Source of the DNA: a virus
Reading direction: 5' to 3' (one strand)
IMG/VR virus record: IMGVR_UViG_3300045988_122046
DNA: 64,000 bases
Both the position numbers and the translations under genes were made by a program. Each line of letters opens with the position of its first letter. The stretch's first letter is position 1. This document shows, piece after piece, positions 82 through 64,000 of this stretch. The notes beneath the pieces were generated by a model. It was not told the DNA's origin. It made no database searches and saw only the letters and a program-made list of their open reading frames with translations.

Positions 82-153
82 GGAAGTGTCATACAACGGT
101 TAGTATGCGGTGCTGATAACGCCGTCACGAAAGTTCGATTCTTTCCACTTCCA
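82..153 (+). tRNA. tRNA-Ile (anticodon GAT)
   Basis: Hand-folded cloverleaf: acceptor ggaagtg/cacttcc, D-stem atac/gtat, anticodon stem cggtg/cgccg with loop cuGAUaa, T-arm gaaag-ttcgatt-ctttc; 72 nt. Confidence 0.7.
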
Positions 154-182
154 TCTTTATAAAAATCAAAAAATAAAATAAA

Positions 183-211
183 TTGATTTTTATAAAAATA
201 AATGATATAAT
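183..211 (+). promoter_or_regulatory. sigma-A-like promoter (TTGATT-N17-TATAAT), conserved phage promoter family
   Basis: -35 TTGATT 183-188, -10 TATAAT 206-211, AT-rich spacer typical of the family. Confidence 0.5.
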
Positions 212-544
212 AAATATATGAAGTAAATAATAATTGCAAGGTGCTAAGGAGGTTTATCTTCTGAGGGTTCTGTAGGTTACAGAGGTAAGGCGAGTGCAAA
301 TCCACCCAATTATTAAAATATAATAGACTCGGATCAGCAAATTTCTTTTAATACAGTTAAAAGGAAAACAAGAACGCCGGTAGTCCGGCTCCAGCCGATG
401 ACCAATAATTTGAGTTGAAGTAAATAGGGATTATTGATAGGATTACTATTAGAACTTTACGAGTCTTGTTAATTAAAAACCTCTCTTTTAAAAATTTAAG
501 AAATATCTTTTTAAGACACATACAGCAAATTTTGCTTATAGCAA

Positions 545-578
545 ATTATTAACACTGGTTCGAATCCAGTTTTATGCT
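545..578 (+). other. tRNA 3'-half fragment A (anticodon 3' stem attat, variable taac, T-arm actgg-ttcgaat-ccagt, acceptor 3' strand tttatgc, discriminator t)
   Basis: Canonical T-arm GTTCGAATC and acceptor strand; no 5' partner upstream; partner lies downstream (585-614). Confidence 0.45.
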
Positions 579-584
579 CAAGGT

Positions 585-614
585 GCGTAAATAGCCAAGC
601 GGTTAGGCAATAAT
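585..614 (+). other. tRNA 5'-half fragment C (acceptor gcgtaaa, U8 A9, D-arm gcca-agcggtt-aggc, anticodon 5' stem ataat)
   Basis: 7/7 complementarity (one G-U) to acceptor strand of fragment A and 5/5 to its anticodon stem strand, but located downstream of it (permuted order). Confidence 0.45.
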
Positions 615-635
615 TCAAAATGTGTCTTGAAATAA

Positions 636-689
636 TGGGGTATCGCCAAGCGGCAAGGCAAAAATTCTTGGTTCGAAAAGTTCAATTTT
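636..689 (+). other. tRNA 5'-half-like fragment D (acceptor uggggua, D-arm gcca-agcggca-aggc, stem aaaat ... atttt enclosing a 19-nt loop)
   Basis: D-arm nearly identical to fragment C; acceptor strand perfectly complementary (7/7) to fragment B at 1574-1580, 890 nt downstream. Confidence 0.4.
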
Positions 690-736
690 ATTATCTTATT
701 TTTGATATATAATATCAAGAGTAGGAGGAAAAAATA

Positions 737-1465
737 ATGGCAATTATTGACAATTATTCAAAAGAAGAACTAGAGCAGATAGTTAAACAATCTTATTCAA
801 TGAATGAAGTGATTGATAAATTAGGCTATGCAACACATAGTGGAAGTAATAATAATACCGTAAAAACAAGAATAGAAAAATTTCAAATAGGTATTTCTCA
901 TTTTAACTTTCAAAAAAGAACAGAAAGAAAAGAAGAAAATATTTTTATTGAAGAATCAACAGCTTCACAGGCAACTTTAAGAAAATGGTATTTAAAAGGA
1001 CAATATACTCCATATAAATGTTCTATTTGTGGTTTAGAGCCAATATGGCAAGGAAAAGAATTAACTTTAATTCTCGATCATATAAATGGGAAAAACCATG
1101 ATGACAGATTAGAAAATCTTCGTTGGGTTTGTCCTAATTGTAATCAACAATTAGATACCACTGGATTTAAACGAGGTAAAAATAAAGAAAATGTAAAAAA
1201 ATATTATTGTAAAGATTGTGGAATAGAAATAAGTAGAAGCTCAAAAGGACTTTGTCCAATATGTGCTAATAAGATAAAGCGAATTGCAGAAAGACCTACA
1301 AGAGATGAATTAAAACAATTAATAAGAAATTTACCTTTTGTTAAAATTGCTGAGCAATATGGAGTTTCTGATAAAGCTATTACTAAATGGTGTATATCAG
1401 AAAATTTACCTTCAAGAAAAAAAGATATTAAAAAATATTCAGATAAAGAATGGGAAGAAATTTAA
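737..1465 (+). CDS. HNH homing endonuclease
   Basis: HNH/zinc motif ILDHINGKNHDDRLENLRWVCPNCN and second CxxC pair; RBS taggagga 8 nt upstream; lies between tRNA half-fragments. Confidence 0.8.
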   Translation: MAIIDNYSKEELEQIVKQSYSMNEVIDKLGYATHSGSNNNTVKTRIEKFQIGISHFNFQKRTERKEENIFIEESTASQATLRKWYLKGQYTPYKCSICGLEPIWQGKELTLILDHINGKNHDDRLENLRWVCPNCNQQLDTTGFKRGKNKENVKKYYCKDCGIEISRSSKGLCPICANKIKRIAERPTRDELKQLIRNLPFVKIAEQYGVSDKAITKWCISENLPSRKKDIKKYSDKEWEEI

Positions 1466-1478
1466 TACTTCCCAACAT

Positions 1479-1553
1479 AGCGGATTAGCCTAGTTGGTAG
1501 GGCTGCGGACTTTGACTCCGTGTGTTGGACAGGTTCGAACCCTGTATCCGCTG
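1479..1553 (+). tRNA. tRNA-Gln (anticodon TTG)
   Basis: Acceptor agcggat/atccgct (7/7), D-arm gcct-agttggta-gggc, anticodon stem gcgga/tccgt with loop cuUUGac, T-arm acagg-ttcgaac-cctgt; variable region slightly long (7 nt). Confidence 0.65.
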
Positions 1554-1581
1554 TTCGCTGGTTCGAATCCAGCTACCCCAG
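1554..1581 (+). other. tRNA 3'-fragment B (T-arm gctgg-ttcgaat-ccagc plus acceptor 3' strand tacccca, discriminator g)
   Basis: Abuts tRNA-Gln; complementary to 5' acceptor strand of fragment D at 636-642. Confidence 0.4.
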
Positions 1582-2038
1582 CTTAATATTAAATCACAAA
1601 ATCTCATGTGTATGGTATCTGAAATGGTACTGATGGAGATAGCTACGAAATAGTTTAGGAATAAGTAGTATGGTTTAATATTTTAAAGTCTGAGTTGAGG
1701 AAGATGCTCAGCCATAGATGACCTATGAGAGTCTTCCAAGGTTGCTTTGTGCTATAGCCTTGTAAATTAATGGGAAGCATGAGATTCTGGTGAGGGGCTT
1801 ACACTTCACTGTCCTTGTAAGCTAAGGGCTTGACAGAGATGGTATCGAAAGTTAATTTCATTAAAAGCGTCATCTTTTAATGAAGTGAATAAACAGATAC
1901 ATACAGCAATTATACTGCTCATATAGGGCGCTTTCCTGCTAAGAAAGAATATTTCAGTATCTGGCTATTTTTTCCTGTCTTTTTCAGCACACTATTTCTA
2001 CAGGAGTTATTAATGAAAAGGCTGATAAATAAAGGAGA

Positions 2039-2230
2039 TTGAATATGTATATTTGTCCTACTTGTAAAAGAAAATTTGAAAAAGAAGAAAGTCTTTCAAA
2101 ACATTTCCTTTCCTGTTGGAAAGAACAACATCCATCTTATATTTCTAAATCTGCTCCAAGGAGTGAGAATATCGAAACAAGACAGGTAAATGAAGATATA
2201 ATGAATTTCTTTAATTCTTTTAAGGGGTAA
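2039..2230 (+). CDS. small C2H2-like zinc-finger protein
   Basis: CPTCKRKFEKEESLSKHFLSC motif; RBS aaaggagat. Confidence 0.45.
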   Translation: MNMYICPTCKRKFEKEESLSKHFLSCWKEQHPSYISKSAPRSENIETRQVNEDIMNFFNSFKG

Positions 2231-2235
2231 GAATA

Positions 2236-2586
2236 ATGGCAGAGGTTTTAGTAAAAACTCATCTCATTGTAACAGATGTGCATGAAGAATATAATATTAA
2301 TTGGTGCGGCAAGATTATTAATACAAAGCCAAAAATTAAAAATGGTAAACCTATATTTGCGGTTATTGGTAGTCGAGGACGCATTGAATTAAATACAACT
2401 GATATGCAAAGAGTTGAGAAATGTGCTAAATTATTAACTGCTCCAAAAGGTAGACAAGCTATTACAAGTGATACAGCTCACATTTATATTATAGAAGAAA
2501 ATGATAAAGAAACTTTAATGGGTGTTTTAACTCATAATCATGTTAAGAGTTATGCCCCAATGTTTGATAAAGTTGATTTTGTTTAA
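2236..2586 (+). CDS. hypothetical protein
   Basis: ORF with RBS, coding-like composition. Confidence 0.45.
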   Translation: MAEVLVKTHLIVTDVHEEYNINWCGKIINTKPKIKNGKPIFAVIGSRGRIELNTTDMQRVEKCAKLLTAPKGRQAITSDTAHIYIIEENDKETLMGVLTHNHVKSYAPMFDKVDFV

Positions 2587-2647
2587 AATTTGGGGAGTTA
2601 TACTGTAGGGGTAGCAGGCCAGTCTGGTTTTAATAGGAGATTTTATA

Positions 2648-3070
2648 GTGAATGAAATTAATAGAAAACAAATTGGAAGAATTGGATTAAGTATGGCAAT
2701 AAATTATTTTACTTGTCAAGGATATACAGTTTCTCTTCCATTAAATGACACTCAGTGGTATGATTTAATAATTGAAAAAGACGGTATTTTAAAAACTGTA
2801 CAATGTAAAGCTACTCAAACTGAAAGTGGAGAAATTAGTTTGAGAAATACAGGAGGAACAAAAGGAGCTGTTTATGATAATATTATAAATCATTCTGAGC
2901 TTGATTTTTTATTTTGTGTAAATAAAAATTTAGACATGTGGTGTATTCCAGTAAAAGATATTCTTAAAGCTGGTAATCGTAATAGAATAGTTTTACGAAA
3001 TACTCCTACAATAAATAATCAAGGATTTCAAACTTATAAATACCAAGTTCAAATCTTGGATAAGGCATAA
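2648..3070 (+). CDS. YraN/UPF0102-like restriction-endonuclease-fold (PD-(D/E)xK) protein, GTG start
   Basis: Pattern GxxGLxxAxxYFxxQGYxV...YDLIIEKDGxLKTVQCKAT resembles YraN/Hjc family; RBS aggaga 8 nt upstream of GTG; followed by a tRNA 3' fragment. Confidence 0.45.
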   Translation: MNEINRKQIGRIGLSMAINYFTCQGYTVSLPLNDTQWYDLIIEKDGILKTVQCKATQTESGEISLRNTGGTKGAVYDNIINHSELDFLFCVNKNLDMWCIPVKDILKAGNRNRIVLRNTPTINNQGFQTYKYQVQILDKA

Positions 3071-3090
3071 AACTGGTGGCTTCGGTCTCG

Positions 3091-3115
3091 GGTGGTTCGA
3101 CTCCATCACTCCCCA
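3091..3115 (+). other. orphan tRNA 3' fragment E (T-arm ggtgg-ttcgact-ccatc plus acceptor strand actcccc, a)
   Basis: No complementary 5' acceptor strand (ggggagt) within 100 nt upstream. Confidence 0.35.
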
Positions 3116-3577
3116 TCAGGGTGCAACCTAACAGTTCCCTTTAATAACTGGCTTCGGCAAGCAGGGACTAACTGCTGCATAAGAGGTATGCAGGCTCTTA
3201 AAAAATAATAGGTATTTTATTTATGTGTAGTGAATATGGCACGAATTATAAGGTATCCTTAACACAGTTTTTTAAACAATCCTATTTAAGTTGACCATAT
3301 TGAATAAAGACTTTGTTAATGGGAAGATAGTCAATAAAAACTAAAGTAGTGAACCAGGCCCTTGATGGATTTTATAGGTGGGTTTAGTGCAAGGAGCATG
3401 AACAATGAACGCTTGCAGAGTAAGGGGTCGCATGAAAAGGTTTTTATTGACTATTTTTTTTATAAAAACCCAGCTCATATGAAAAGCATAAACTGCTCGC
3501 GCCGGACCCGAACGAGAGAACCGCAAACCCAAATCAAAAAAGCATTTTAGAATTTTTTAGACAAAAAGATTGCTATA

Positions 3578-3606
3578 TTGATTTTTTAATAAAAATATTA
3601 TATAAT
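3578..3606 (+). promoter_or_regulatory. conserved phage promoter (TTGATT-N17-TATAAT)
   Basis: -35 3578-3583, -10 3601-3606. Confidence 0.55.
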
Positions 3607-3646
3607 ATATTTATATTAAAGATAAGAGATAAAGGAGATTTAAAAA

Positions 3647-3997
3647 ATGATGAAAACTACTTTTGGTAAAGAAAAATATCGGGTATTTGTAGACCAGAAT
3701 CAGCGGAAGGTAATTGCAGTAAGCACTTATGCAGGTAAAAATGTAAAAGGCTATGCAAAGGCAGACCCAAGAGACACCTTTGATGTAGAAAAAGGTACTG
3801 AGCTTGCTATTGCCCGTTGTAATGCAAAGATTGCAGAAAAAAGAGCTAAAAGAGCGGCAAGTAAAGTTTCTGAGGCGCTTCAGGAGCTTGCAGAAGCTCA
3901 GAAGCATCTTGTAAAAATGCAGAAATATCTTGTAGATGCAAATGAGGCTTGCGATGTAGCAAAAGCCAATGTTGCGGCTATTGAAAAAACACTTTAA
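3647..3997 (+). CDS. hypothetical coiled-coil protein
   Basis: RBS aaaggagat, promoter upstream; antisense ORF 3611-4009 is low-complexity artefact. Confidence 0.55.
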   Translation: MMKTTFGKEKYRVFVDQNQRKVIAVSTYAGKNVKGYAKADPRDTFDVEKGTELAIARCNAKIAEKRAKRAASKVSEALQELAEAQKHLVKMQKYLVDANEACDVAKANVAAIEKTL

Positions 3998-4043
3998 TAT
4001 AAGGGGCATATGCCCCTTATATTTTTAATATAGGAGGTTTCAT

Positions 4044-4325
4044 ATGCAAAGAAATGCCAGAGGAATTAGAAGAAAACAATCTATTAGAAAAGCAAAGCAT
4101 AAAAGATATATTGCTGAAGTAGTATATGGATGGGAAGATGGATGGTATAGAAATCTTCATGCTTATAGTAAAAATAAAAATTTTTGTTCATGTGAATGTT
4201 GTTCTGGTCAATTTAAAACAAATCCAAAAGGACATTATAGCGCGGGCAAGCGTAACTGGTGTCGAATGGACCGTCGCAGATGGGAGAGTATGGATGAGCA
4301 AGAAAAAGATTTTTCGCAAGCCTAA
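4044..4325 (+). CDS. small basic Cys-rich protein
   Basis: RBS taggaggt; CSCECCSGQ cluster. Confidence 0.5.
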   Translation: MQRNARGIRRKQSIRKAKHKRYIAEVVYGWEDGWYRNLHAYSKNKNFCSCECCSGQFKTNPKGHYSAGKRNWCRMDRRRWESMDEQEKDFSQA

Positions 4326-4488
4326 ACCGCAACCACCAAAATGGTTTTGGTTAGATACTGATGGATGTTGGGATTGTAATTGTAACCATCATGGATGCCG
4401 TAATTGTAAGCGATTAAAAGAAATGCGTAAAATCGAAAAAGATAAACGTGAGCGAAAAGAAAAACAAAAAATCCAATCTTATTATTAA
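4294..4488 (+). CDS. small basic Cys-rich protein (overlaps previous gene in +1 frame; possible frameshift partner)
   Basis: ATG 4294 with ggagag upstream; CWDCNCNHHGCRNCKRL cluster; upstream part of ORF-track frame (4126-4290) looks non-coding. Confidence 0.35.
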   Translation: MSKKKIFRKPKPQPPKWFWLDTDGCWDCNCNHHGCRNCKRLKEMRKIEKDKRERKEKQKIQSYY

Positions 4489-4554
4489 GGCTGGATTTTT
4501 TATTTATTATCCAGTGTTATCTATTATAACATATTTTCAGTTGAAAAATCAAAA

Positions 4555-4583
4555 TTGATTTTTTATAAAAAATATTATATAAT
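4555..4583 (+). promoter_or_regulatory. conserved phage promoter
   Basis: TTGATT 4555-4560, TATAAT 4578-4583. Confidence 0.55.
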
Positions 4584-4614
4584 TATTATAGAAAAAGATA
4601 AGAGGATGATAAAT

Positions 4615-5238
4615 ATGAGAAAAATGTTTGGAACAATGTTAGCAACTGAAGATTACGCTTTAGGAGCAAGACGTTTATATGACAGCTTAAAAACTGTCAA
4701 TAGTATTTATCAAAATGATTTTTTTATTCTATTAGCCAGTAACATAAATATAGATAATATAAAAAAAATCTTTCCTGAAAAAGGTGTTTTTATTGCAAAT
4801 TTTAATCTTTTAAATACTCCTAATTTAGACAGAGATGAAAGGATTAAATATACAATAAATAAAATTTATGCTTTTCAAGTGCCAGTAGGAATCAAACTAT
4901 GTTTAGTTGATTCAGATATATATTTTATTAAAAACTGTGACCATTATTTAGACTTTCCTGCGGGAAGTGCTTATCCTGCCGCACATCCTCCTCACAGTGC
5001 GAATGGTGGAGTCATTATTTTTGAGAATGATTTTCAAAGTTTCTTAAAAGGAAAGGAAATTATTGATAATTTTAATGGTGATTTCCGCATTAATGATGAG
5101 TATATATGGAAAGAATTATGGCAGAATTTTTCAACTGATTATGAAAAACACTTGCCTATTGGAGATTGGTATAATAATGAAGAACAAATGCGAGTTGTTC
5201 ATGAAGATGGATTTCCAAAACAATGGATGATAAATTGA
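4615..5238 (+). CDS. family-8-like (glycogenin-like) nucleotide-sugar glycosyltransferase
   Basis: N-terminal FGTMLATEDYALGARRLYDSLKTV like GT8 (glycogenin AFVTL..YxxGAxVLxxSL) and DxD motif LVDSDIYF; start at ATG 4615 after RBS agaggatga. Confidence 0.5.
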   Translation: MRKMFGTMLATEDYALGARRLYDSLKTVNSIYQNDFFILLASNINIDNIKKIFPEKGVFIANFNLLNTPNLDRDERIKYTINKIYAFQVPVGIKLCLVDSDIYFIKNCDHYLDFPAGSAYPAAHPPHSANGGVIIFENDFQSFLKGKEIIDNFNGDFRINDEYIWKELWQNFSTDYEKHLPIGDWYNNEEQMRVVHEDGFPKQWMIN

Positions 5239-5263
5239 TTTTATTTTAAAAATATTATATAAT
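5235..5263 (+). promoter_or_regulatory. conserved phage promoter
   Basis: TTGATT 5235-5240, TATAAT 5258-5263. Confidence 0.55.
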
Positions 5264-5300
5264 ATATTTATAAGATAAAGAAAGAGAGAATGATAAATAA

Positions 5301-6419
5301 ATGCAGATTGTAAACACAGGAAATATTTATAGAATTTATGACGACAGTGTTCAGACTTCAGATAAATTACCTGCCCAGTGTTATCAGGTAGATTTTAATC
5401 CGCAAGCAGGATTCTATTTAACCAAGTATGATGACATTAAAATCTCTGAAAAGATTTATGGAGTTCATCTTCAGAAAGTCCAAAAGGTATTGGGTTCTTT
5501 TAAACTTGTTAATAGAAATCTTGGTGTAATTTTATCTGGCGATAAAGGTATTGGAAAATCTCTTTTTGCTAAATTACTTGCGGCAAAGGGCATAGAAGAA
5601 GGTTATCCACTTATTATTGTAAACTGTTATTATCCAGGAATTGCAGATTTTCTTGCTTCAATCCAACAGGAAGTTGTAGTTCTTTTCGATGAGTTTGATA
5701 AAACATTTTCTGGTAAAAGAGATGAATCAAATTCTATCGCCGATCCGCAAACAGAAATGCTTACACTCTTTGATGGATTAAGTCAAGGAAAGAAACTTTT
5801 TGTAATTACTTGCAATGAGTTAAGAGGGTTAAATGACTACCTTGTCAATAGACCTGGTCGTTTTCATTATCACATTCGCTTTGAGTATCCAACAGATATG
5901 GAAGTAAAATCCTATCTTGAAGATCAGGTTCCAGAGTGTATGTATGGTGAAATTAATAAAGTAATTGCATTTAGTCATAAAGTTAATCTTAATTATGACT
6001 GTTTGCGGGCAATTGCTTTTGAGCTTACTCTTGGCTCTACATTCGAAGATGCAATTAAAGACTTAAATATTATTCGTATTGAAAAAGAAACTTATAATGC
6101 AATTCTTTATTTTAAAGATGGCGGACATGTTAAAAGAACTGTTTACCTTGATTTATTTGAAGAAGAGACTATTACCATGGATTGTTATGATGAAAATGGC
6201 TTTAATTTCTATGCTTCATTTGAATCTGGCGGTATAACCTATGATTATGATAAAGGCGGTATGATCGTTGATGGTAAAAAGGTTGGTCTTAATTGGCTGC
6301 CTAACTATTATGATGATAATGATGAAGAGATTGCAGCTCTCAAAAAGCGTCAGGAAAGAGAGGTAGATTATATTTCTCTTCGTAGAGCTGGGGCAAAAAA
6401 TCTTCATTATGCTCTTTAA
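5301..6419 (+). CDS. AAA+ ATPase
   Basis: Walker A GDKGIGKS, Walker B VVVLFDEFDK, sensor-1 VITCNE. Confidence 0.7.
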   Translation: MQIVNTGNIYRIYDDSVQTSDKLPAQCYQVDFNPQAGFYLTKYDDIKISEKIYGVHLQKVQKVLGSFKLVNRNLGVILSGDKGIGKSLFAKLLAAKGIEEGYPLIIVNCYYPGIADFLASIQQEVVVLFDEFDKTFSGKRDESNSIADPQTEMLTLFDGLSQGKKLFVITCNELRGLNDYLVNRPGRFHYHIRFEYPTDMEVKSYLEDQVPECMYGEINKVIAFSHKVNLNYDCLRAIAFELTLGSTFEDAIKDLNIIRIEKETYNAILYFKDGGHVKRTVYLDLFEEETITMDCYDENGFNFYASFESGGITYDYDKGGMIVDGKKVGLNWLPNYYDDNDEEIAALKKRQEREVDYISLRRAGAKNLHYAL

Positions 6420-6427
6420 ATAAAAAT

Positions 6428-6456
6428 TTGCTTTTAAAAAAAATATATGTTATAAT
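6428..6456 (+). promoter_or_regulatory. promoter (TTGCTT-N17-TATAAT) driving tRNA-like element and tRNA-Leu
   Basis: -35 6428-6433, -10 6451-6456. Confidence 0.45.
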
Positions 6457-6473
6457 TTATATATAAATTAAAA

Positions 6474-6572
6474 AAGACACTTTCTCAGCAATTAAAGAAA
6501 ATGGATAATAAAATTGTGTTGTGAATGATTTTTAGAGGGTTCAAATCCCTTAAATGAAAAATAAAGTGTCTT
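6474..6572 (+). ncRNA. tRNA-like / pseudo-tRNA element
   Basis: Terminal 7-bp helix aagacac/gtgtctt encloses a canonical T-arm gaggg-ttcaaat-ccctt, but D and anticodon arms do not fold; cotranscribed with tRNA-Leu. Confidence 0.3.
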
Positions 6573-6592
6573 GATAAACTATTCAAGATAAA

Positions 6593-6614
6593 CTCCTCAC
6601 CGGAGTGTGAGGAG
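6593..6614 (+). other. perfect 8-bp GC-rich hairpin (ctcctcac-cggagt-gtgaggag) between tRNA-like element and tRNA-Leu
   Basis: Inverted repeat read directly; no T-run, so likely processing site or structural element rather than terminator. Confidence 0.4.
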
Positions 6615-6620
6615 TATTAA

Positions 6621-6702
6621 GCTGGTATGGTGGAACGGTATACACGGCGGACTTAAAATCCGCTGGCTCCGAGCCTTGCGGGTTCGAATCCCGCTACCAG
6701 CA
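6621..6702 (+). tRNA. tRNA-Leu (anticodon TAA), class II with long variable arm
   Basis: Acceptor gctggta/taccagc, anticodon stem gcgga/tccgc loop cuUAAaa, variable hairpin ggctc-cga-gagcc, T-arm gcggg-ttcgaat-cccgc; 82 nt. Confidence 0.75.
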
Positions 6703-6787
6703 CTGACTAAAAATCAATAGGAGGGATAATATATGTTCTATCATATTGGTACAGTCTTCTAAGTCCTTAGAAAGGAGGATTTAGATA

Positions 6788-7114
6788 ATGAGTAGAAGTT
6801 ATAAAAAAACGCCTTGGTCTGGAGATAGAAAAGGTAAAATAAAAAAACGGATTGCGAATCAAACAGTTCGTTCTTGGTTAAAACAGCATCCAGATGTAAA
6901 ACTTTCAAAAGGTGATTTTAAAAAAATTTATGAAACTTGGGACATTTGTGATTATGGATATAAAATGACTTGGGAAGAATATTGGGAGAGTGAAGTTAGA
7001 CATTATTATTGGTTTAAAATGAATTTTCCTGAAATGAAAACTTCTAAATATTGTAAATATCCAGATAAAAAAGAAACTTATAGACAGTGGTACAAATGGT
7101 ATAAAATGAAATAA
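6788..7114 (+). CDS. hypothetical W/Y-rich protein
   Basis: RBS aaaggaggat. Confidence 0.5.
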   Translation: MSRSYKKTPWSGDRKGKIKKRIANQTVRSWLKQHPDVKLSKGDFKKIYETWDICDYGYKMTWEEYWESEVRHYYWFKMNFPEMKTSKYCKYPDKKETYRQWYKWYKMK

Positions 7115-7115
7115 T

Positions 7116-7144
7116 TTGATTTTTATAAAATTTTTTGATATAAT
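7116..7144 (+). promoter_or_regulatory. conserved phage promoter upstream of tRNA-Gly
   Basis: TTGATT 7116-7121, TATAAT 7139-7144, leader AGAAAGTTAAAG. Confidence 0.55.
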
Positions 7145-7224
7145 AAATATAGAAAGTTAAAGAACTTTCCTCTTTTTAAATTTCCTCTTAAAAATAGCAA
7201 ATGTTTAAAACATTTGCTAAATAT

Positions 7225-7296
7225 GCGGGTGTAGTGTAGTTGGCAACATACGTGTCTTCCAAACATGTGTCACGGGTTCAAATCCCGTTATCCGCT
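7225..7296 (+). tRNA. tRNA-Gly (anticodon TCC)
   Basis: Acceptor gcgggtg/tatccgc (two G-U), D-stem gtgt/acat, anticodon stem cgtgt/acatg loop cuUCCaa, T-arm acggg-ttcaaat-cccgt; 72 nt. Confidence 0.65.
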
Positions 7297-7593
7297 CTAA
7301 AGAGCCATAAACTGCAAAACAATTTATATCTTCAAATGGATATTATTGGGTAAAATCACATACATATTAAAATATGATGATTTAATAATGCAATGCTTCT
7401 CAGTAGACTAAATAGGCTGGGCTCTTGATATACAAAGCAGTATTAGTGAAAAGAAGCATCTATTTAATTTTTAATGGTTTTATAATTTACATTAAGGCAT
7501 AAACAGCAATCGTTGATTAAATTCAAGCAAATATTTTATTATATGACAATAAAACATATTTTTGAAAAAGGATGATTATTATGCCTTGAAAAA

Positions 7594-7616
7594 AGGGGCA
7601 TTTTGTCCCCTTTTTT
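7594..7616 (+). terminator. rho-independent terminator
   Basis: gggg-cattttgt-cccc followed by TTTTTT; directly precedes tRNA-Lys. Confidence 0.5.
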
Positions 7617-7689
7617 GTGCCAGTAACTCAGTTGGTAGAGTATCAAACTTTTAATTTGAGAGTCGCGGGTTCAAGTCCCGCCTGGCACA
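7617..7689 (+). tRNA. tRNA-Lys (anticodon TTT)
   Basis: Acceptor gtgccag/ctggcac, D-stem actc/gagt, anticodon stem tcaaa/tttga loop cuUUUaa, T-arm gcggg-ttcaagt-cccgc; 73 nt. Confidence 0.8.
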
Positions 7690-7702
7690 CTTTTAAAGGA
7701 GA

Positions 7703-37751: not shown

Positions 37752-39462
37752 ATGTCTGAGAACTATGGTGTAAAAGACATAAAAACTTTGGAAGGTATTG
37801 AAGCGATTCGATTACGTGCTGGAATGTATATCGGTAGTGTTGGACCTGCTGGAGTTAGACATATTACTCTTGAAATTATTTCCAATGTAATTGATGAATA
37901 CTTAAATGGATATTGTACAAAGTGTAATATTGAAGTAACAGAAAATGATGTTGTAACAGTAGTAGATGATGGACGTGGTGTTCCTTTTGGAAAAGCCGCA
38001 GATGGTTCAGAAACTCTTGAAAATATTTTTACTAAACTTCATACAGGAGCTAAATTTGATAGTTCTGGTAAAACTGGATATAATACATCTGGTGGTATGA
38101 ATGGTGTTGGTGCAAAAGCAACAAATGCATTATCAGATAAATTTATTGTCACTTCCAAAAGAGATGGTAAAATTGCAACAATGACATTTGAAAAAGGTGA
38201 AAGAAAAGATTTTAAAGTTGAAAAGTATGCGGGAAAAGATACTGGAACAACAATTACTTTTCATCCAGATGTTGAGATTTTTAAAGAAGGAATTTCACTT
38301 GATTACGAAGAATTAAAAAGACAAATTCAGGAATTGGCATATCTTTCTCCTGGATTAACTTTTACATTAAAATATAAAAACAAAGCTGAAGATGTAATTG
38401 TTTCTCAGAATGGTATTCTGGATTATATTCAAGATTTGAATAAAAAGAAAAATACTATTACATCTGTTTTTTATGCCGAAGCTTCCGAAGATAGAATTGG
38501 TGTAAAATTAGCAATGCTGTATAACGATAGTTATACTGATACTTATAAATTATATACAAACTCAATTCCAAATACAGCTGGAACTCATCTTACTGGATTT
38601 AGAACTGCATTAACTTCTGCAATTAATAATTACGCAAGAGAGAATAAACTTCTTAAAGAAAAGGATTCTAATATCGTAGGTGATGAGTTAAAAGAAGGTC
38701 TTGTATTAGTTCTTTCTTTTGTGATGCCAGACCCAGTCTTTTCAGGTCAGACAAAAGAGAAACTTGATTCAAGTGAAGGACGTACAATGGTCCAGAAGCT
38801 GGTATCAAAAGAGATTGCAATTTGGCTTGAGAGTCATCCTAATGATGCAAAAGCAATTATTAATAAGGCTTTATTAGCACGTGCTGCAAGAGAGAAAGCT
38901 AAAAAAGCTAAAGAAACAGTTCGTAAAGCGGATGTGAAGAAAAGGGCAGTAATGCCTGGTACATTAGCAGATGCAAGTTCTCGAAATAGAGCTTTTTGTG
39001 AAGTGTTTATTGTAGAGGGAAAATCTGCGGCCGGTTCAACAAAAGAAGCCAGGGATAGAGCTACCCAGGCTGTGTTCCCCGTTCGAGGTAAGATTCTTAA
39101 CGTATTGAAGGCAGACCTCGCGAAGGCATTAAAGAATGCAGAAATTGATGGTATGATTACTGCTTTTGGACTTGAAATTAAGGACGGAAAAGTAATTGTA
39201 AATAAAGATAAATTGCGTTATGGTAAAATTGTTATTACAGCCGATGCGGATGTTGATGGTAGTCATATTAGAGCGTTATTTTTAACCTTTATTTGGAAAT
39301 TTGCTCCGCAATTAATTGAAGATGGATATATTTATGCGGCAGTTCCTCCACTTTATAAAGTTACACAGGGAACTAAAATTACTTATCTAAAAGATGATGC
39401 GGCTCTTGAGGAGTTTAGAAAGACAGCTAAAAAATCTTTTGAGCTGGGTCGTATGAAAGGGT
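37752..39462 (+). CDS. topoisomerase II large subunit (GyrB/ParE-like, T4 gp39-like), exon 1
   Basis: GHKL ATPase and TOPRIM region (EVFIVEGKSAAGS, DADVDGSHI); exon ends at U39462 within conserved RYKG|LGEM motif. Confidence 0.8.
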
Positions 39463-40495
39463 AAGAGATAGTCTGGCCCTTATCCACTTTTCCTCTAATC
39501 AGAGGGGTTATTATCTTAGATAATAGCTAACGAGGCAGTCTTCAAAATATTTTGGGTATTTCAGGAAATCCTGAAATGGATAAAACTTAAATATTATTGG
39601 AGATAATCTCGTGGGAAAAAACTATAAGAGATTATCTTACATTTTATTATGTGAGGTATTCAATATGATAGGAATTTATAAGATAACAAACAAAATTAAT
39701 GGAGATGCTTATATTGGACAAAGCACTCAAATAGAAGAAAGATTTATAGAACATAAAAATCCTACAAATTGGGCAAGAGAATCTAATAAAAGTCTTTATA
39801 AAGCATTTATTCAATTTGGATTACAAAATTTTGATTTTTCCGTTTTAGAAGAATGCAAAAAAGAAGAATTAAATGATAAAGAACAATATTGGATTGGATA
39901 TTATAGTACATATCCTAATCAATATAATATGACTCCAGGAGGACAATTTAATGCAGGTGAATGTCATCCAAGTCATAAATTAACTGAAAAGGATGTGATT
40001 GATATTAGAACGAGATATAAAAATCACGAAAGAAAAAAAGACGTTTATTTATTATATGCTCATTTAATTGGGGAATCTGGCTTTCATAAAATTTGGAATG
40101 GTTCAACATGGAAAACAATAATGCCAGAAGTTTATACAAAAGAAAATAAAGATTTTCATGCTCATAATACTTCAAATGTAGGTTCTAAAAACGGAAGGTC
40201 TAAATTAACAGAAGAAGATGTTAAAAATATTCGCTTAAGGAAGAAAAATGGAGAGCAATTATCTTCCGTTTACAATGATTATTCTGATAAATTAACTTAT
40301 AAATCTTTTGAAAATGTTTGGTCTTATAGAAACTGGAAAAAAATTATAGTTTAAACCTGTATCGACTATTCCCTTTGTCGGGAAGTAGAAATACTATTGA
40401 TACGTATTTCAAAAAGGTGGACATGATGAAGGCAGTTAATACGTTAGCCGGAGTGAAGAAATAGTCAGTACCAATGGTGACATTGGAATAATACG
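39463..40495 (+). mobile_element. group I intron (1033 nt) carrying a GIY-YIG homing endonuclease ORF
   Basis: Exon1 ends with U, intron ends with G; internal guide ggccctt (39474-39480) pairs with exon end aagggu including U-G at splice site; splicing restores ...RMKG-L-GEMDPSEM... colinear with E. coli GyrB RYKGLGEMNPEQL. Confidence 0.7.
39665..40354 (+). CDS. GIY-YIG homing endonuclease (intron-encoded)
   Basis: IGIYKITNKINGDAYIGQSTQIEERFIEH motif; start at ATG 39665. Confidence 0.75.
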   Translation: MIGIYKITNKINGDAYIGQSTQIEERFIEHKNPTNWARESNKSLYKAFIQFGLQNFDFSVLEECKKEELNDKEQYWIGYYSTYPNQYNMTPGGQFNAGECHPSHKLTEKDVIDIRTRYKNHERKKDVYLLYAHLIGESGFHKIWNGSTWKTIMPEVYTKENKDFHAHNTSNVGSKNGRSKLTEEDVKNIRLRKKNGEQLSSVYNDYSDKLTYKSFENVWSYRNWKKIIV

Positions 40496-61476: not shown

Positions 61477-62814
61477 ATGAGCAAAAAGTGGTTTAATTGT
61501 CATAACCATACAGAGTATTCAAACTTACGTCTTTTGGATTCAACCAATCACCCAAAAGATTTAATCAATAAAGCAATCGAATTAGGACTTAGTGGTATCT
61601 GTATAACTGACCATGAAGCCCTTTGTGCGCACGTTGAAATAAATAAAATTGCGACAGAATTAAGAGAAACAAATCCTGATTTTGTGATTGGATTAGGAAA
61701 TGAGATTTATTTAACTGATACAAGAAATCATGGTCAGAAATATTATCACTTTATTTTGATTGCTAAAGATGCAATCGGTCATAAAGCATTAAGAGAGTTA
61801 AGTTCTACAGCTTGGTATTATTCATATATGGATAGAGGTATGGAAAGAGTTCCAACTTTAAAAGATGAATTAACTGAGATTGTAAAACATTATAAAGGTC
61901 ATTTAATTGCGACCAGTGCATGTATTGGTGGAGAATTATCTTCATGGTCTTTATTATATGCAGAAGCATTAAAAGTAAATGACCAAAAGATGGCAATGGA
62001 ATTTCAGAAAAAAATTCAAGATTTTATGAATTTTGTACTTGATTTATTTGGAGATGATTTCTATATTGAATGCGCTCCATCTAATAAAGAAGATCAAATG
62101 ACTGTAAATTCTCAGTTGTTTAAAATTGCAACTGCATATAATGTTAAGATGGTTGTTGGAACTGACTCTCATTATTTAACAAAAGAAGATAGAATGGTTC
62201 ATAAAGCATATCTTAATTCAAAAGGTGGAGAGCGTGAGGTTGATGACTTTTATGAATTTGCCAGACTTATGGATAGCGATGAAGTAGAAGAATTATTGTC
62301 TCCATGTTTTCCAGATGGATATGTAGATGTAATTTTTGAAAACACTTTAGATTTACAGAATAAAATTGAATATTACAGTCTTTTTCATAAGCAGGATATT
62401 CCATCTGTAGAAGTTAAAGATTATCCAAAAACAAGAGGATTTAGGCAGTATCCACATTTATCTGCAATGTTAATGGATGATGATATTCAGAATCGTTATT
62501 GGGTAAATGAATGTTTAAATCAGCTTGAAAAACTTGAAAAAATTAATGATAGACGTTATCTTGATGAACTTGAAGAAGAAGCACGAGTTAAAAGTATCAT
62601 TAGTGAAAAACTTGAAACAAATATGTTCCGTTATCCAAATACACTTCAGCATTATATTGATATGATTTGGGATTGCGGTTCAATGGTAGGTGCTGGTCGT
62701 GGTTCCAGTTGCGCCGCACTTAATCATTACCTTATGGGAATTACTCAGCTGGATCCAATTGAGTGGGATTTACCTTTCTTCCGTTATCTTAACGAAGAGA
62801 GAATCGAACTCGGT
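61477..62814 (+). CDS. dnaE: DnaE-type DNA polymerase III alpha, exon 1 (PHP domain)
   Basis: PHP motifs HNHTEYS, ITDHEAL; exon ends at U62814 inside ...FRYLNEERIELG|, matching E. coli DnaE ...FERFLNPERVSMP|DFDVDFC. Confidence 0.7.
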
Positions 62815-63979
62815 AGTCTGATATTGATATTGCCGAGTTGTAAATAAAAAACGTGAACCTTGCTAAAGGGTGTATTGTTATAAAAACAGTGCTAACGGTA
62901 TCAGCAAAATAAGGTATGTTTAATTAATACACGAATCAGCTGACTAAGAGAGCGAGTGGCCAGAAATGGTTGGACTTTGTAATACCGTGCTTTAAAAATA
63001 ACAAAATATCTTGGTCAATGTTTGTCAAAGTCAATATCGCCTTTATTATATAAAATATGAAAGGTGGTAATGATATGGAATATTTTATTTATATGACAAC
63101 AAATTTAATAAATGGACATAAATATATAGGTAAACATCATGGAGAATTAAATGATAGTTACTTAGGAAGTGGACTTTTATTAAAACAAGCGGTTAAAAAA
63201 TATGGTAAAGAGAATTTTAAAAGAGAAATATTATATATTTCTAAAAACGAAGAAGAAAATTCTCAAAAAGAAAAAGAATTTATAAATGTTTATAATGCAG
63301 TAGAAGATAAAAACTTTTATAATATTCATGAAGGCGGTAATGGTGGTAATACAATTGCTGGATGGTCTTTAGAACAAAAAGCCGCTTATTCTAAAAAATT
63401 AAGTGAACAGAGAAAAGGAGATAAAAATTCTCGATATGGTGTTCATTTAACAGAAGAAACAAAAAATAAAATAAGACAAAATAGAGACACTTCATATATG
63501 CAAACAACAGAATATAAAAAAAATATGTCTAAGGCAGTTAGTGGAAAAAAGAATGGTATGTATGGTAAACATCATACAGAAGAGTCAAAACGATTAATGT
63601 CTGAACATAGTAAAGGATTAAATTCTGGAGAAAAAAATGGCATGTATGGAAAAAGTAAAAATAATGCAATTAATGGTAAAAAAATCTATATGTATGATGA
63701 AAATAATAATTTAATTCGAGTTTTTAATGCAAAAACAGCCGCATTAGATTTTTTAGGATTAAAAGGACATGTAGGATTAAATAAAGCTATTAAGGAGCAT
63801 ACGATATATAAAGGTTATTTTTGGAGTGTAGAGACTAAATGAGAATTAAATATTTTATATTCTCAAGAGGAATAGAGAATAAGCACTATTCCGTAGCGCG
63901 TTTTAGCAATAATTGAAGTAAAATATTCTCAGTAAATTATTGTGAAAGAGATAGTCCAATACTTAAAAAGTATATAATG
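62815..63979 (+). mobile_element. group I intron (1165 nt) carrying a GIY-YIG homing endonuclease ORF
   Basis: Exon1 ends in U, intron ends in G (aaug|); internal guide gccgag (62832-62837) pairs with exon end cucggu with U-G; splicing gives RIELG-DIDIDIC colinear with RVSMP-DFDVDFC. Confidence 0.6.
63057..63842 (+). CDS. GIY-YIG homing endonuclease with NUMOD3-like repeats (intron-encoded)
   Basis: EYFIYMTTNLINGHKYIGKH...; repeats NGMYGKHHTEESK / NGMYGKSKNN. Confidence 0.75.
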   Translation: MKGGNDMEYFIYMTTNLINGHKYIGKHHGELNDSYLGSGLLLKQAVKKYGKENFKREILYISKNEEENSQKEKEFINVYNAVEDKNFYNIHEGGNGGNTIAGWSLEQKAAYSKKLSEQRKGDKNSRYGVHLTEETKNKIRQNRDTSYMQTTEYKKNMSKAVSGKKNGMYGKHHTEESKRLMSEHSKGLNSGEKNGMYGKSKNNAINGKKIYMYDENNNLIRVFNAKTAALDFLGLKGHVGLNKAIKEHTIYKGYFWSVETK

Positions 63980-64000
63980 GATATTGATATCGACATATGC
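63980..64000 (+). CDS. dnaE: DnaE exon 2 (partial, runs off window): DIDIDIC...
   Basis: matches conserved PDFDVDFC segment after PHP domain. Confidence 0.45.

Follow-up and report, generated by a model that had tools for sequence, protein, structure and literature searches.

At the end of a 64,000-nucleotide stretch of viral DNA (IMG/VR record IMGVR_UViG_3300045988_122046; the whole stretch is called the window here), the reading frame of a DnaE-type DNA polymerase runs into a stop codon within its catalytic domain, and the codons of the Asp-x-Asp motif that should follow appear, in frame with it, 1165 nucleotides (nt) further on. Does the locus encode a truncated protein with a PHP domain followed by fragments, or one polymerase gene with an element lodged inside it? 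Comparison with relatives and analysis of the intervening RNA lead us to conclude with high confidence that positions 62815–63979 (+) are a mobile IA2-like group I intron, inserted in phase 0 in a phage dnaE gene immediately 5' of the Asp-x-Asp codons. The annotation that follows from this is a single polymerase gene of about 1308 codons.

The host gene and the insertion

Exon 1 of dnaE extends from 61477 to 62814 (+) and comprises codons 1–446, which encode a PHP domain (Pfam, E=2.8e-25) and the start of the DNA polymerase III (Pol III) alpha catalytic domain (DNA_pol3_alpha, E=9e-13, covering the first 90 residues of that domain). It is collinear with residues 1–446 of an uninterrupted 1308-residue homologue found in a related locus, L002, and its 3' end reads AGA ATC GAA CTC GGT (RIELG), the last base being 62814. 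The open reading frame (ORF; 61477–62847) continues for a further 33 nt to an in-frame TAA at 62845–62847 (+), evident both in the ORF list and in the sequence, which would terminate read-through from exon 1 just 5' of the ribozyme core (helix P3 starts at 62848); the original prediction had placed the stop here, and correctly so. Downstream of G63979 the start of exon 2 (63980–64000, +) reads GAT ATT GAT ATC GAC ATA TGC (DIDIDIC), 21 nt that take the catalytic Asp motif up to the end of the window. The prediction depended on a DnaE frame continuing beyond this point, and this was checked in a relative, L019, which has the same intron and 97.0% identity in exon 1 DNA: there the frame goes on for 862 codons, to DnaE residue 1308. 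The 1308-residue empty-site homologue matches the Pol III alpha subunits of Thermus aquaticus (2HPI, E=2e-57) and E. coli (2HNH), and its ELG-DIDIDI aligns with VSMP-DIDTDF of the Thermus enzyme, the aligned aspartates being the catalytic aspartates of C-family polymerases (E. coli D401 and D403). With an N-terminal PHP domain followed by a catalytic domain that carries the Asp-x-Asp motif, the host gene is, as judged from domain content and homology, a DnaE-type Pol III alpha, in agreement with the earlier assignment. The insertion separates the codon for Gly446 from that for the first Asp in DIDID and precedes the first catalytic aspartate by one codon.

The limits of the element are fixed by alleles that do not have it. 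When IMG/VR was scanned for exon-1 relatives, 50 loci were obtained, and in 12 of them (L001–L010, L025 and L039), with exon-1 proteins 98–100% identical to that of the window, the site is empty: the protein reads ...FRYLNEERIELG|DIDIDICPSKRP... (RIELG|DIDIDIC) without interruption and the DNA reads gaact(c/t)ggt|gatattgat. A shift of a single base at either boundary no longer reproduces the empty-site sequence. Because all 12 alleles read straight through, the insertion is exactly 62815–63979, and the splice boundaries first proposed, U62814 and G63979 with restoration of RIELG-DIDIDIC, are those that the relatives define. The predicted spliced dnaE junction reads ...GAACUCGGU|GAUAUUGAUAUC....

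Intron presence and absence is patchy among these near-identical phages, and the introns found at this one site differ widely in what they carry. That of L019 is 97.2% identical to the window's. A GIY-YIG endonuclease gene is present in the introns of the window, L019, L052, L118, L058, L150, L094 and L059/L060, and an HNH gene in those of L115, L145 and the Enterococcus phage EF1; in L023 and L064 the endonuclease gene is broken into a fragmented ORF, and in L012, L103 and L125 there is none. The ORF-less insertions measure 337 nt in L012 and L013 (70% protein identity) and 310 nt in L103, at the same point. Exon 1 of the window is nearer to that of empty-site L001 (99.4% identical) than to that of intron-bearing L019 (97.0%). 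The same-site introns display the usual cycle of endonuclease gain, decay and loss, and the set fits the customary picture of homing, from which we infer that the element is mobile.

The dnaE genes of these relatives are interrupted at at least nine other positions (around codons 427, 436, 447/448, 576, 716, 802, 839–841 and 845) in L001, L003, L006, L009, L010, L025, L012/13, L028, L029/30/32, L038, L039, L042, L043, L044 and L050; the insertions there are 196–1227 nt long and all have an S-like AGAUAGUC element near the 3' end. The one in L044, a relative of the window intron, sits just 3 nt on the downstream side of the insertion point in the window. L001, the closest relative by exon 1, has a codon-845 intron, and the window genome may therefore have one beyond position 64000. 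In L152 (1390–2810) small ORF-less introns belonging to the window intron's family, three with full core motifs and perhaps a fourth, stand in a row with exons of about 60–200 nt between them; twin 5' halves that looked like a duplication there, as in L053 and L136, proved in L152 to be these several small introns.

Ribozyme fold and intron class

The ORF was trimmed from 17 introns that occupy this dnaE site, 15 of the resulting sequences were aligned with MAFFT, and the structure of the window intron was written onto the alignment; the counts given below refer to these 15. Pairing holds in 88.0% of cells overall, where shuffles give 72.8% and slid partners 36–42%. Changes on both sides occur in 57 pairs (shuffles, 36.2), and the covariation score reaches 0.352 (shuffles, 0.135); not one of 500 shuffles attained the observed value on any measure. 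When no structure was supplied, RNAalifold returned P1, P3, P3.1, P3.2, P4, P5, P5a, P5b, P6 and P7.2, with compensatory changes in 44 of 72 pairs, and refined P4 to 6 base pairs and P5 to UCAGC/GCUGA. These helices also appear in the minimum free energy fold of the L012 intron, which has no ORF (z=-2.15).

The clearest single result for the fold is the co-variation of guide and exon in P1 (62809–62837, +). Here all six bases of exon CUCGGU (62809–62814) pair with the guide GCCGAG (62832–62837), and U62814·G62832 marks the 5' splice site, as had been proposed at the outset. The U·G wobble is found in 15 of 15 introns, four of the six pairs change on both sides and 95.6% of cells are paired, the guide following the exon codon (Gly GGU or Pro CCU) through the combinations CUCGGU/GCCGAG, CUGGGU/GCUCAG, CUGCCU/GGGCAG and UUGCCU/GGGCAA. 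The suggestion that the intron start could form a P10-type pairing with exon 2 gains support in the same way: the intron strand GAUAUU (62826–62831, +) pairs with GAUAUU of exon 2 (63980–63985), with 97.7% of cells paired and two compensatory pairs (e.g. GAUGUU/GACAUU in L103 and ACAUU/GAUGU in L145 and L059).

The 5' strand of P3, AAAACG (62848–62853, +), pairs with CGUUUU (63899–63904) and forms a pseudoknot with P7; five of its six pairs change on both sides, 95.3% of cells are paired, and it is also recovered by RNAalifold and in the minimum free energy fold of the ORF-less copy. Between this strand and J3/4–P4 stand two hairpins, provisionally named P3.1 and P3.2 (62856–62890, +). P3.1 (62856–62871) has a conserved GUGAAC...GGUGU frame and P3.2 (62874–62890) is variable in sequence; both are predicted by RNAalifold, and nine of their pairs show compensatory change. 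The P4–P5 domain (62895–62988, +), defined by covariation analysis and RNAalifold, consists of P4 (ACGGUA/UACCGU, 62895–62900 with 62983–62988), which is invariant in sequence, P5 (UCAGC/GCUGA, 62901–62905 with 62939–62943) and P5a (62914–62917 with 62927–62930), which both covary, and P5b (62958–62962 with 62967–62971). The 5' strand of P6/P6a, CUUUAAAAAUAAC (62990–63002, +), is directly complementary over 13 base pairs to GUUAUUUUUGGAG (63814–63826) and closes the ORF-bearing loop; a P6 helix of differing sequence is found in 15 of 15 introns (RNAalifold, columns 234–274), with compensatory pairs.

In the 3' part of the core, the P7 5' strand GACUA (63833–63837, +), within the R-like element GUAGAGACUA, pairs with UAGUC (63952–63956) within the S-like element AGAGAUAGUCC, and is invariant in 15 of 15 introns. 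P7.1 (63841–63846 with 63859–63864) and P7.2 (63869–63875 with 63886–63892) occupy 63841–63892 (+), between the P7 5' and P3 3' strands. P7.2 is 98.1% paired and covaries in six of seven pairs; P7.1, with compensatory pairs, is present in the window intron and in 8 of the 15. P8 (63907–63942, +; CAAUAAUU with AAUUAUUG) is 100% paired where aligned, five of its pairs showing compensatory change. The element ends with a P9 hairpin (AUACUU/AAGUAU) and the terminal omega-G63979, together at 63959–63979 (+) and read from the sequence; the terminal G is found in all 15 introns, P9 is not conserved, and L012, L023 and L064 are without the hairpin.

Two further features of the loops were seen. The P8 loop of the window intron (63915–63934) shares a conserved GAAGUAA...(A/U)CUCUCAGUA with those of L012, L052, L103 and L150, and in the window this sequence is complementary to the 5' strand of P7.1 (GAGAAU/AUUCUC), a match that may reflect a tertiary contact or some other pairing. 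Just 3' of P3.1, the conserved GGUGU (62868–62872) could make a long-range contact with the P7.2 loop (63880–63886), where its complement is GCAC(C/U) or AUACC; the positions are the same in relatives, and no double compensatory changes were seen between them. Several other pairings were tried and dropped. GGACU (62972–62976), a candidate for the P7 5' strand, lacks conservation in L023 and L044. For P3, neither UGCUA/UAGCG nor a strand abutting CUAACGG, chosen by analogy with the td intron of phage T4, covaried, the strand in question being part of hairpin P3.2; ACGGUAU/AUACCGU, considered as P3, is P4 by comparison with td; and a GAGAG/CUCUC pairing that crosses P8 is not conserved.

The element has the structural features of a group I intron, namely P1 with its U·G, omega-G with P10, and a P3–P8 core with the P3/P7 pseudoknot and the R/S and P/Q elements. 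An intein is excluded by in-frame stops, the lack of an intein domain and the group I core, and a group II intron by the stops, the lack of a reverse-transcriptase domain and, again, the core. Subgroup IA2 is defined by P7.1 and P7.2 in domain 7 (PMC4227781), and these are found in the window intron in the same position as in td. The extended domain 9 of that subgroup (P9.0, P9.1 and P9.2) is not present, a single 6-bp hairpin preceding omega-G, and for this reason we call the intron IA2-like rather than typical IA2. The window intron and its same-site relatives also lack P2, which is present in some members of the wider family, such as the L044 intron.

The extent of that family was gauged by scanning IMG/VR with a pattern taken from the intron, GCTAACGGT N55-85 AATACCGTG. 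The motif GCUAACGGU...AAUACCGUG was found in at least 120 stretches, and among the matches listed are at least 76 distinct introns in which both an R-like element (GUAGAGACUA or GUAACGACUA) and an S-like one (AGAUAGUC) are present. Tentatively, the window intron may represent a large family of IA2-like introns in phages, one not included in Rfam release 15 and with an architecture of its own (no P2, two extra hairpins), with the DnaE genes of these AT-rich phages as an intron hot spot and same-site ribozymes that gained endonucleases of different classes independently; the placement could even make polymerase output dependent on splicing.

Endonuclease, mechanism and rival explanations

The loop closed by P6 holds the endonuclease gene (63075–63842, +), which encodes 255 residues from ATG 63075; a further ATG lies upstream at 63057. 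The downstream codon is the likely start, homologues beginning at the equivalent of M7, and AAAGGUGGU (63060–63068) resembles a Shine-Dalgarno site six bases before it. The last ten or so codons overlap the P6 3' and P7 5' strands, an overlap of ORF and core strands that has been noted for other introns (PMC3984707). The translated ORF (63057/63075–63842) contains NUMOD3 repeats (Pfam NUMOD3, E=1.2e-15), matches phrog_314 (E=1.3e-40) and scores 76.2 bits against a cut-off of 56.05 with NCBIfam TIGR01453.1, "group I intron endonuclease", residues 4–250 aligning with positions 3–212 of a profile of 215; we take TIGR01453 to be the I-TevI-like GIY-YIG family. A single-sequence phmmer search of the PDB gave no match, and a small profile was needed, with which the DNA-binding and catalytic domains of I-TevI were the only matches. 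A FIY-(10 residues)-YIG motif is present, and counterparts of I-TevI Glu75 and Asn90 align. By family membership the ORF is an I-TevI-like GIY-YIG/NUMOD3 homing endonuclease with predicted activity; the original prediction had named it a GIY-YIG/NUMOD homing endonuclease. A candidate promoter for the gene itself (TTGTCA-16-TATTAT, 63022–63049) was rejected, promoter-like hits being no commoner than in shuffles (15 versus 17.1), and no CNNNG cleavage motif of the I-TevI kind was seen by eye 23–25 nt upstream.

How such an element would work can be set out from the structure. The dnaE gene would be transcribed as one pre-mRNA, and ribosomes leaving exon 1 would halt at UAA 62845–62847, just 5' of the ribozyme core. 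The RNA would fold into P1 (CUCGGU/GCCGAG), the P3/P7 pseudoknot, P4–P6, P7.1/P7.2 and P8; exogenous guanosine bound in P7 would attack 3' of U62814, which contributes the U to the U·G wobble; P10 (GAUAUU with GAUAUU of exon 2) would align the 3' exon while omega-G63979 occupied the G site; and ligation of the exons would give ...RIELG-DIDIDIC... and an mRNA for a DnaE of about 1308 residues. The endonuclease would be made from the P6-loop gene by way of its own ribosome-binding site, and in a mixed infection it would cut intron-less dnaE near the conserved site, repair from the intron-bearing copy then spreading the intron.

Several points count against this account. Exon 2 is visible for 21 nt, the remainder being supplied by L019 and other relatives, and splicing at the window site is itself deduced from the sequence. 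The flanking exons contain no clear co-conversion tract: alleles with and without the intron are not told apart by any polymorphism, and the CTC/CTT difference near the insertion is shared by the intron-less L010. In the endonuclease, the Pfam GIY-YIG profiles stay below their gathering cut-offs (PF01541, 19.2 versus 22.6; PF19835, 23 versus 25), and the alignment offers no obvious counterpart of I-TevI Arg27. Finally, the group I assignment of the original prediction drew no hit from the Rfam group I covariance model, a cmscan search of release 15 (E<=10) finding no match in the window region, in the ORF-less L012 copy or in EF1. This last point weighs little: the T4 td intron, taken from a T4-like genome as a positive control, was missed as well, and the negative loses its force for that reason. 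The absence of an Rfam release 15 hit is thus no ground for rejecting ORF-bearing group I introns of phages.

The interruption could be read in other ways. A genuine group I intron might not splice by itself and might need a host or phage protein, or its endonuclease acting as a maturase, in vivo. We consider this unlikely. Half of the validated introns of Bastillevirinae phages (four of eight) are reported to have been spliced only in infected cells (PMC11878797), and the window intron, with no P2 and a minimal P9, is poorer in stabilising peripheral elements than td or the IA2 introns of IStrons; on the other hand, its core helices are all intact and conserved, the minimum free energy fold of the ORF-less form reaches native-like helices unaided, and a maturase-type (LAGLIDADG) protein is absent from the intron. 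It is very improbable that the element is a decaying, splicing-defective relic and this phage's dnaE a pseudogene. Endonuclease decay does occur in L023 and L064 with their fragmented ORFs, but the full-length window ORF scores above the TIGR01453 cut-off, pairing is seen in each core helix, the intron is 97% identical to that of an independent contig, and a DnaE-type polymerase is assumed to be this phage's replicase.

Phage genes split by free-standing endonuclease genes are known from T-even-like phages, and the pieces of the polymerase genes of EF1 and phage G are listed as separate coding sequences (CDSs) in GenBank, both of which would suit a gene split by an endonuclease cassette without splicing, its polymerase halves working separately or the gene being dead. 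Such a split is scarcely credible here: it would leave the ORF-less same-site insertions of 310–337 nt without reason, the roughly 380 nt of non-coding flanks fold as a covarying ribozyme, exon 2 starts with GAU, exactly in frame with exon 1 and with no start codon or ribosome-binding site, and the cut would fall one codon before the catalytic aspartates, inside the match to the catalytic domain. A mobile group I intron that is predicted to splice, and whose spread would be driven by its endonuclease, accounts for these features.

Elsewhere in the window, a second group I intron lies at about 39463 to 40486, within the 37752–40486 (+) region. A GyrB/topoisomerase-type ORF (37752–39464) has the ending ...ELGRMKG*; a guide GGCCC pairs with exon AGGGU, GCUAACGAGG is found at 39526, an R element GUAUCGACUA at 40359 and an S element AGAAAUAGUC at 40457, and the intron carries a GIY-YIG ORF (39611/39665–40354; MIGIYKITNKINGDAYIG...). 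Splicing at ...AAUAAUACG|UAGGUGAG would restore K-G-L-G-E-M. At the other end of the window a cluster of six tRNA genes occupies 82–8240 (+), at 82–153, 1479–1553, 6621–6702, 7225–7296, 7617–7689 and 8167–8240.

Comparison with known systems

Group I introns with homing endonucleases in the DNA polymerase, ribonucleotide reductase and terminase genes of phages are textbook material (PMC3984707; PMC11878797; PMC12880540). The window intron leaves current understanding unchanged; its value lies in the correction of an annotation and in exposing a clear blind spot of Rfam. With it, DnaE-type replicases join the phage genes that homing introns target, and gene callers will mis-split such dnaE genes, as they have in the GenBank records of EF1 and phage G. 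As a rule, homing endonucleases are directed at conserved sequence that is critical to function (PMC3984707), and insertion at the codons of the catalytic aspartates conforms to it.

The td intron of T4, which is assigned to subgroup IA2 in the literature, resembles the window intron in many respects. Both interrupt a phage protein-coding gene, thymidylate synthase in the case of td as opposed to DnaE. They share the P4 element CUAAC-GG.../...CCGUG, the window's P4 corresponding to td CUAAACGGGG...AAUCCCGUG, as well as GACUA in R/P7 and UAGUC in S/P7', and P7.1 and P7.2 between the P7 5' and P3 3' strands, in an order of elements (R/P7, P7.1, P7.2, a GAAxx/GUAGx linker, P3', P8, S/P7') that is the same throughout; in each, the endonuclease ORF is looped out of P6 and encodes a GIY-YIG enzyme with a NUMOD3-type linker (I-TevI for td), and the 3' end reads ...AUAAUG|. 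In td there are a P2 hairpin and an extended P9–P9.2 region; in the window intron P2 is missing, P9 is one small hairpin, and the stretch from the P3 5' strand to J3/4 contains two additional hairpins. DNA similarity between the two introns is undetectable outside the core motifs.

Introns of IA type with endonuclease ORFs also occur, often several to a gene, in the replicative polymerase genes of SPO1/SP82, Bastille and the Bastillevirinae (PMC11878797; PMC3984707). Those polymerases are of family A (PolA type), unlike the window's, and the endonucleases are mostly HNH enzymes, some of which nick instead of cutting both strands. No paper on an intron in a phage DnaE-type polymerase, that of EF1 included, was found in a literature search whose incomplete coverage makes this weak evidence of absence.

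The closest counterparts are found in sequence records. Megablast against phage genomes gave no match, and EF1 and phage G were found only by distant-mode blastn and tblastn. Enterococcus phages EF1 and EF5 (MF001358 and MF001361) have an intron in the Pol III alpha gene at the homologous site, ...RPELP|DVDID..., and the EF1 ribozyme is homologous to the window's, with 80.6% identity over P3–P4, the same helices, P1 as UUGCCU/GGGCA and the ORF in the P6 loop; it differs in carrying an HNH endonuclease (163 residues) in place of GIY-YIG, and its host DnaE is only 41% identical. The record shows separate CDSs and 'HNH homing endonuclease # Phage intron'. Further on in the same genome (MF001358, L170; 6952–7943), the second DnaE CDS is followed by a 669-nt 'hypothetical protein' and then by another CDS; the polymerase gene has probably been interrupted there once more, by an intron or an endonuclease insertion. 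In Bacillus phage G (L172; JN638751, 239245–243217), gp329 ('DNA polymerase III; DnaE-like'), gp330 ('homing endonuclease') and gp331 have the appearance of a single DnaE-like gene interrupted by an intron of the window intron's family, which is not annotated as such in the record. The 5' part of that insertion is 74.6% identical to the P3–P4 region of the window intron family, and its site differs, at about codon 745 of gp329. Homologues thus already exist in GenBank, and the window intron is an unremarkable example of a familiar class of mobile element.

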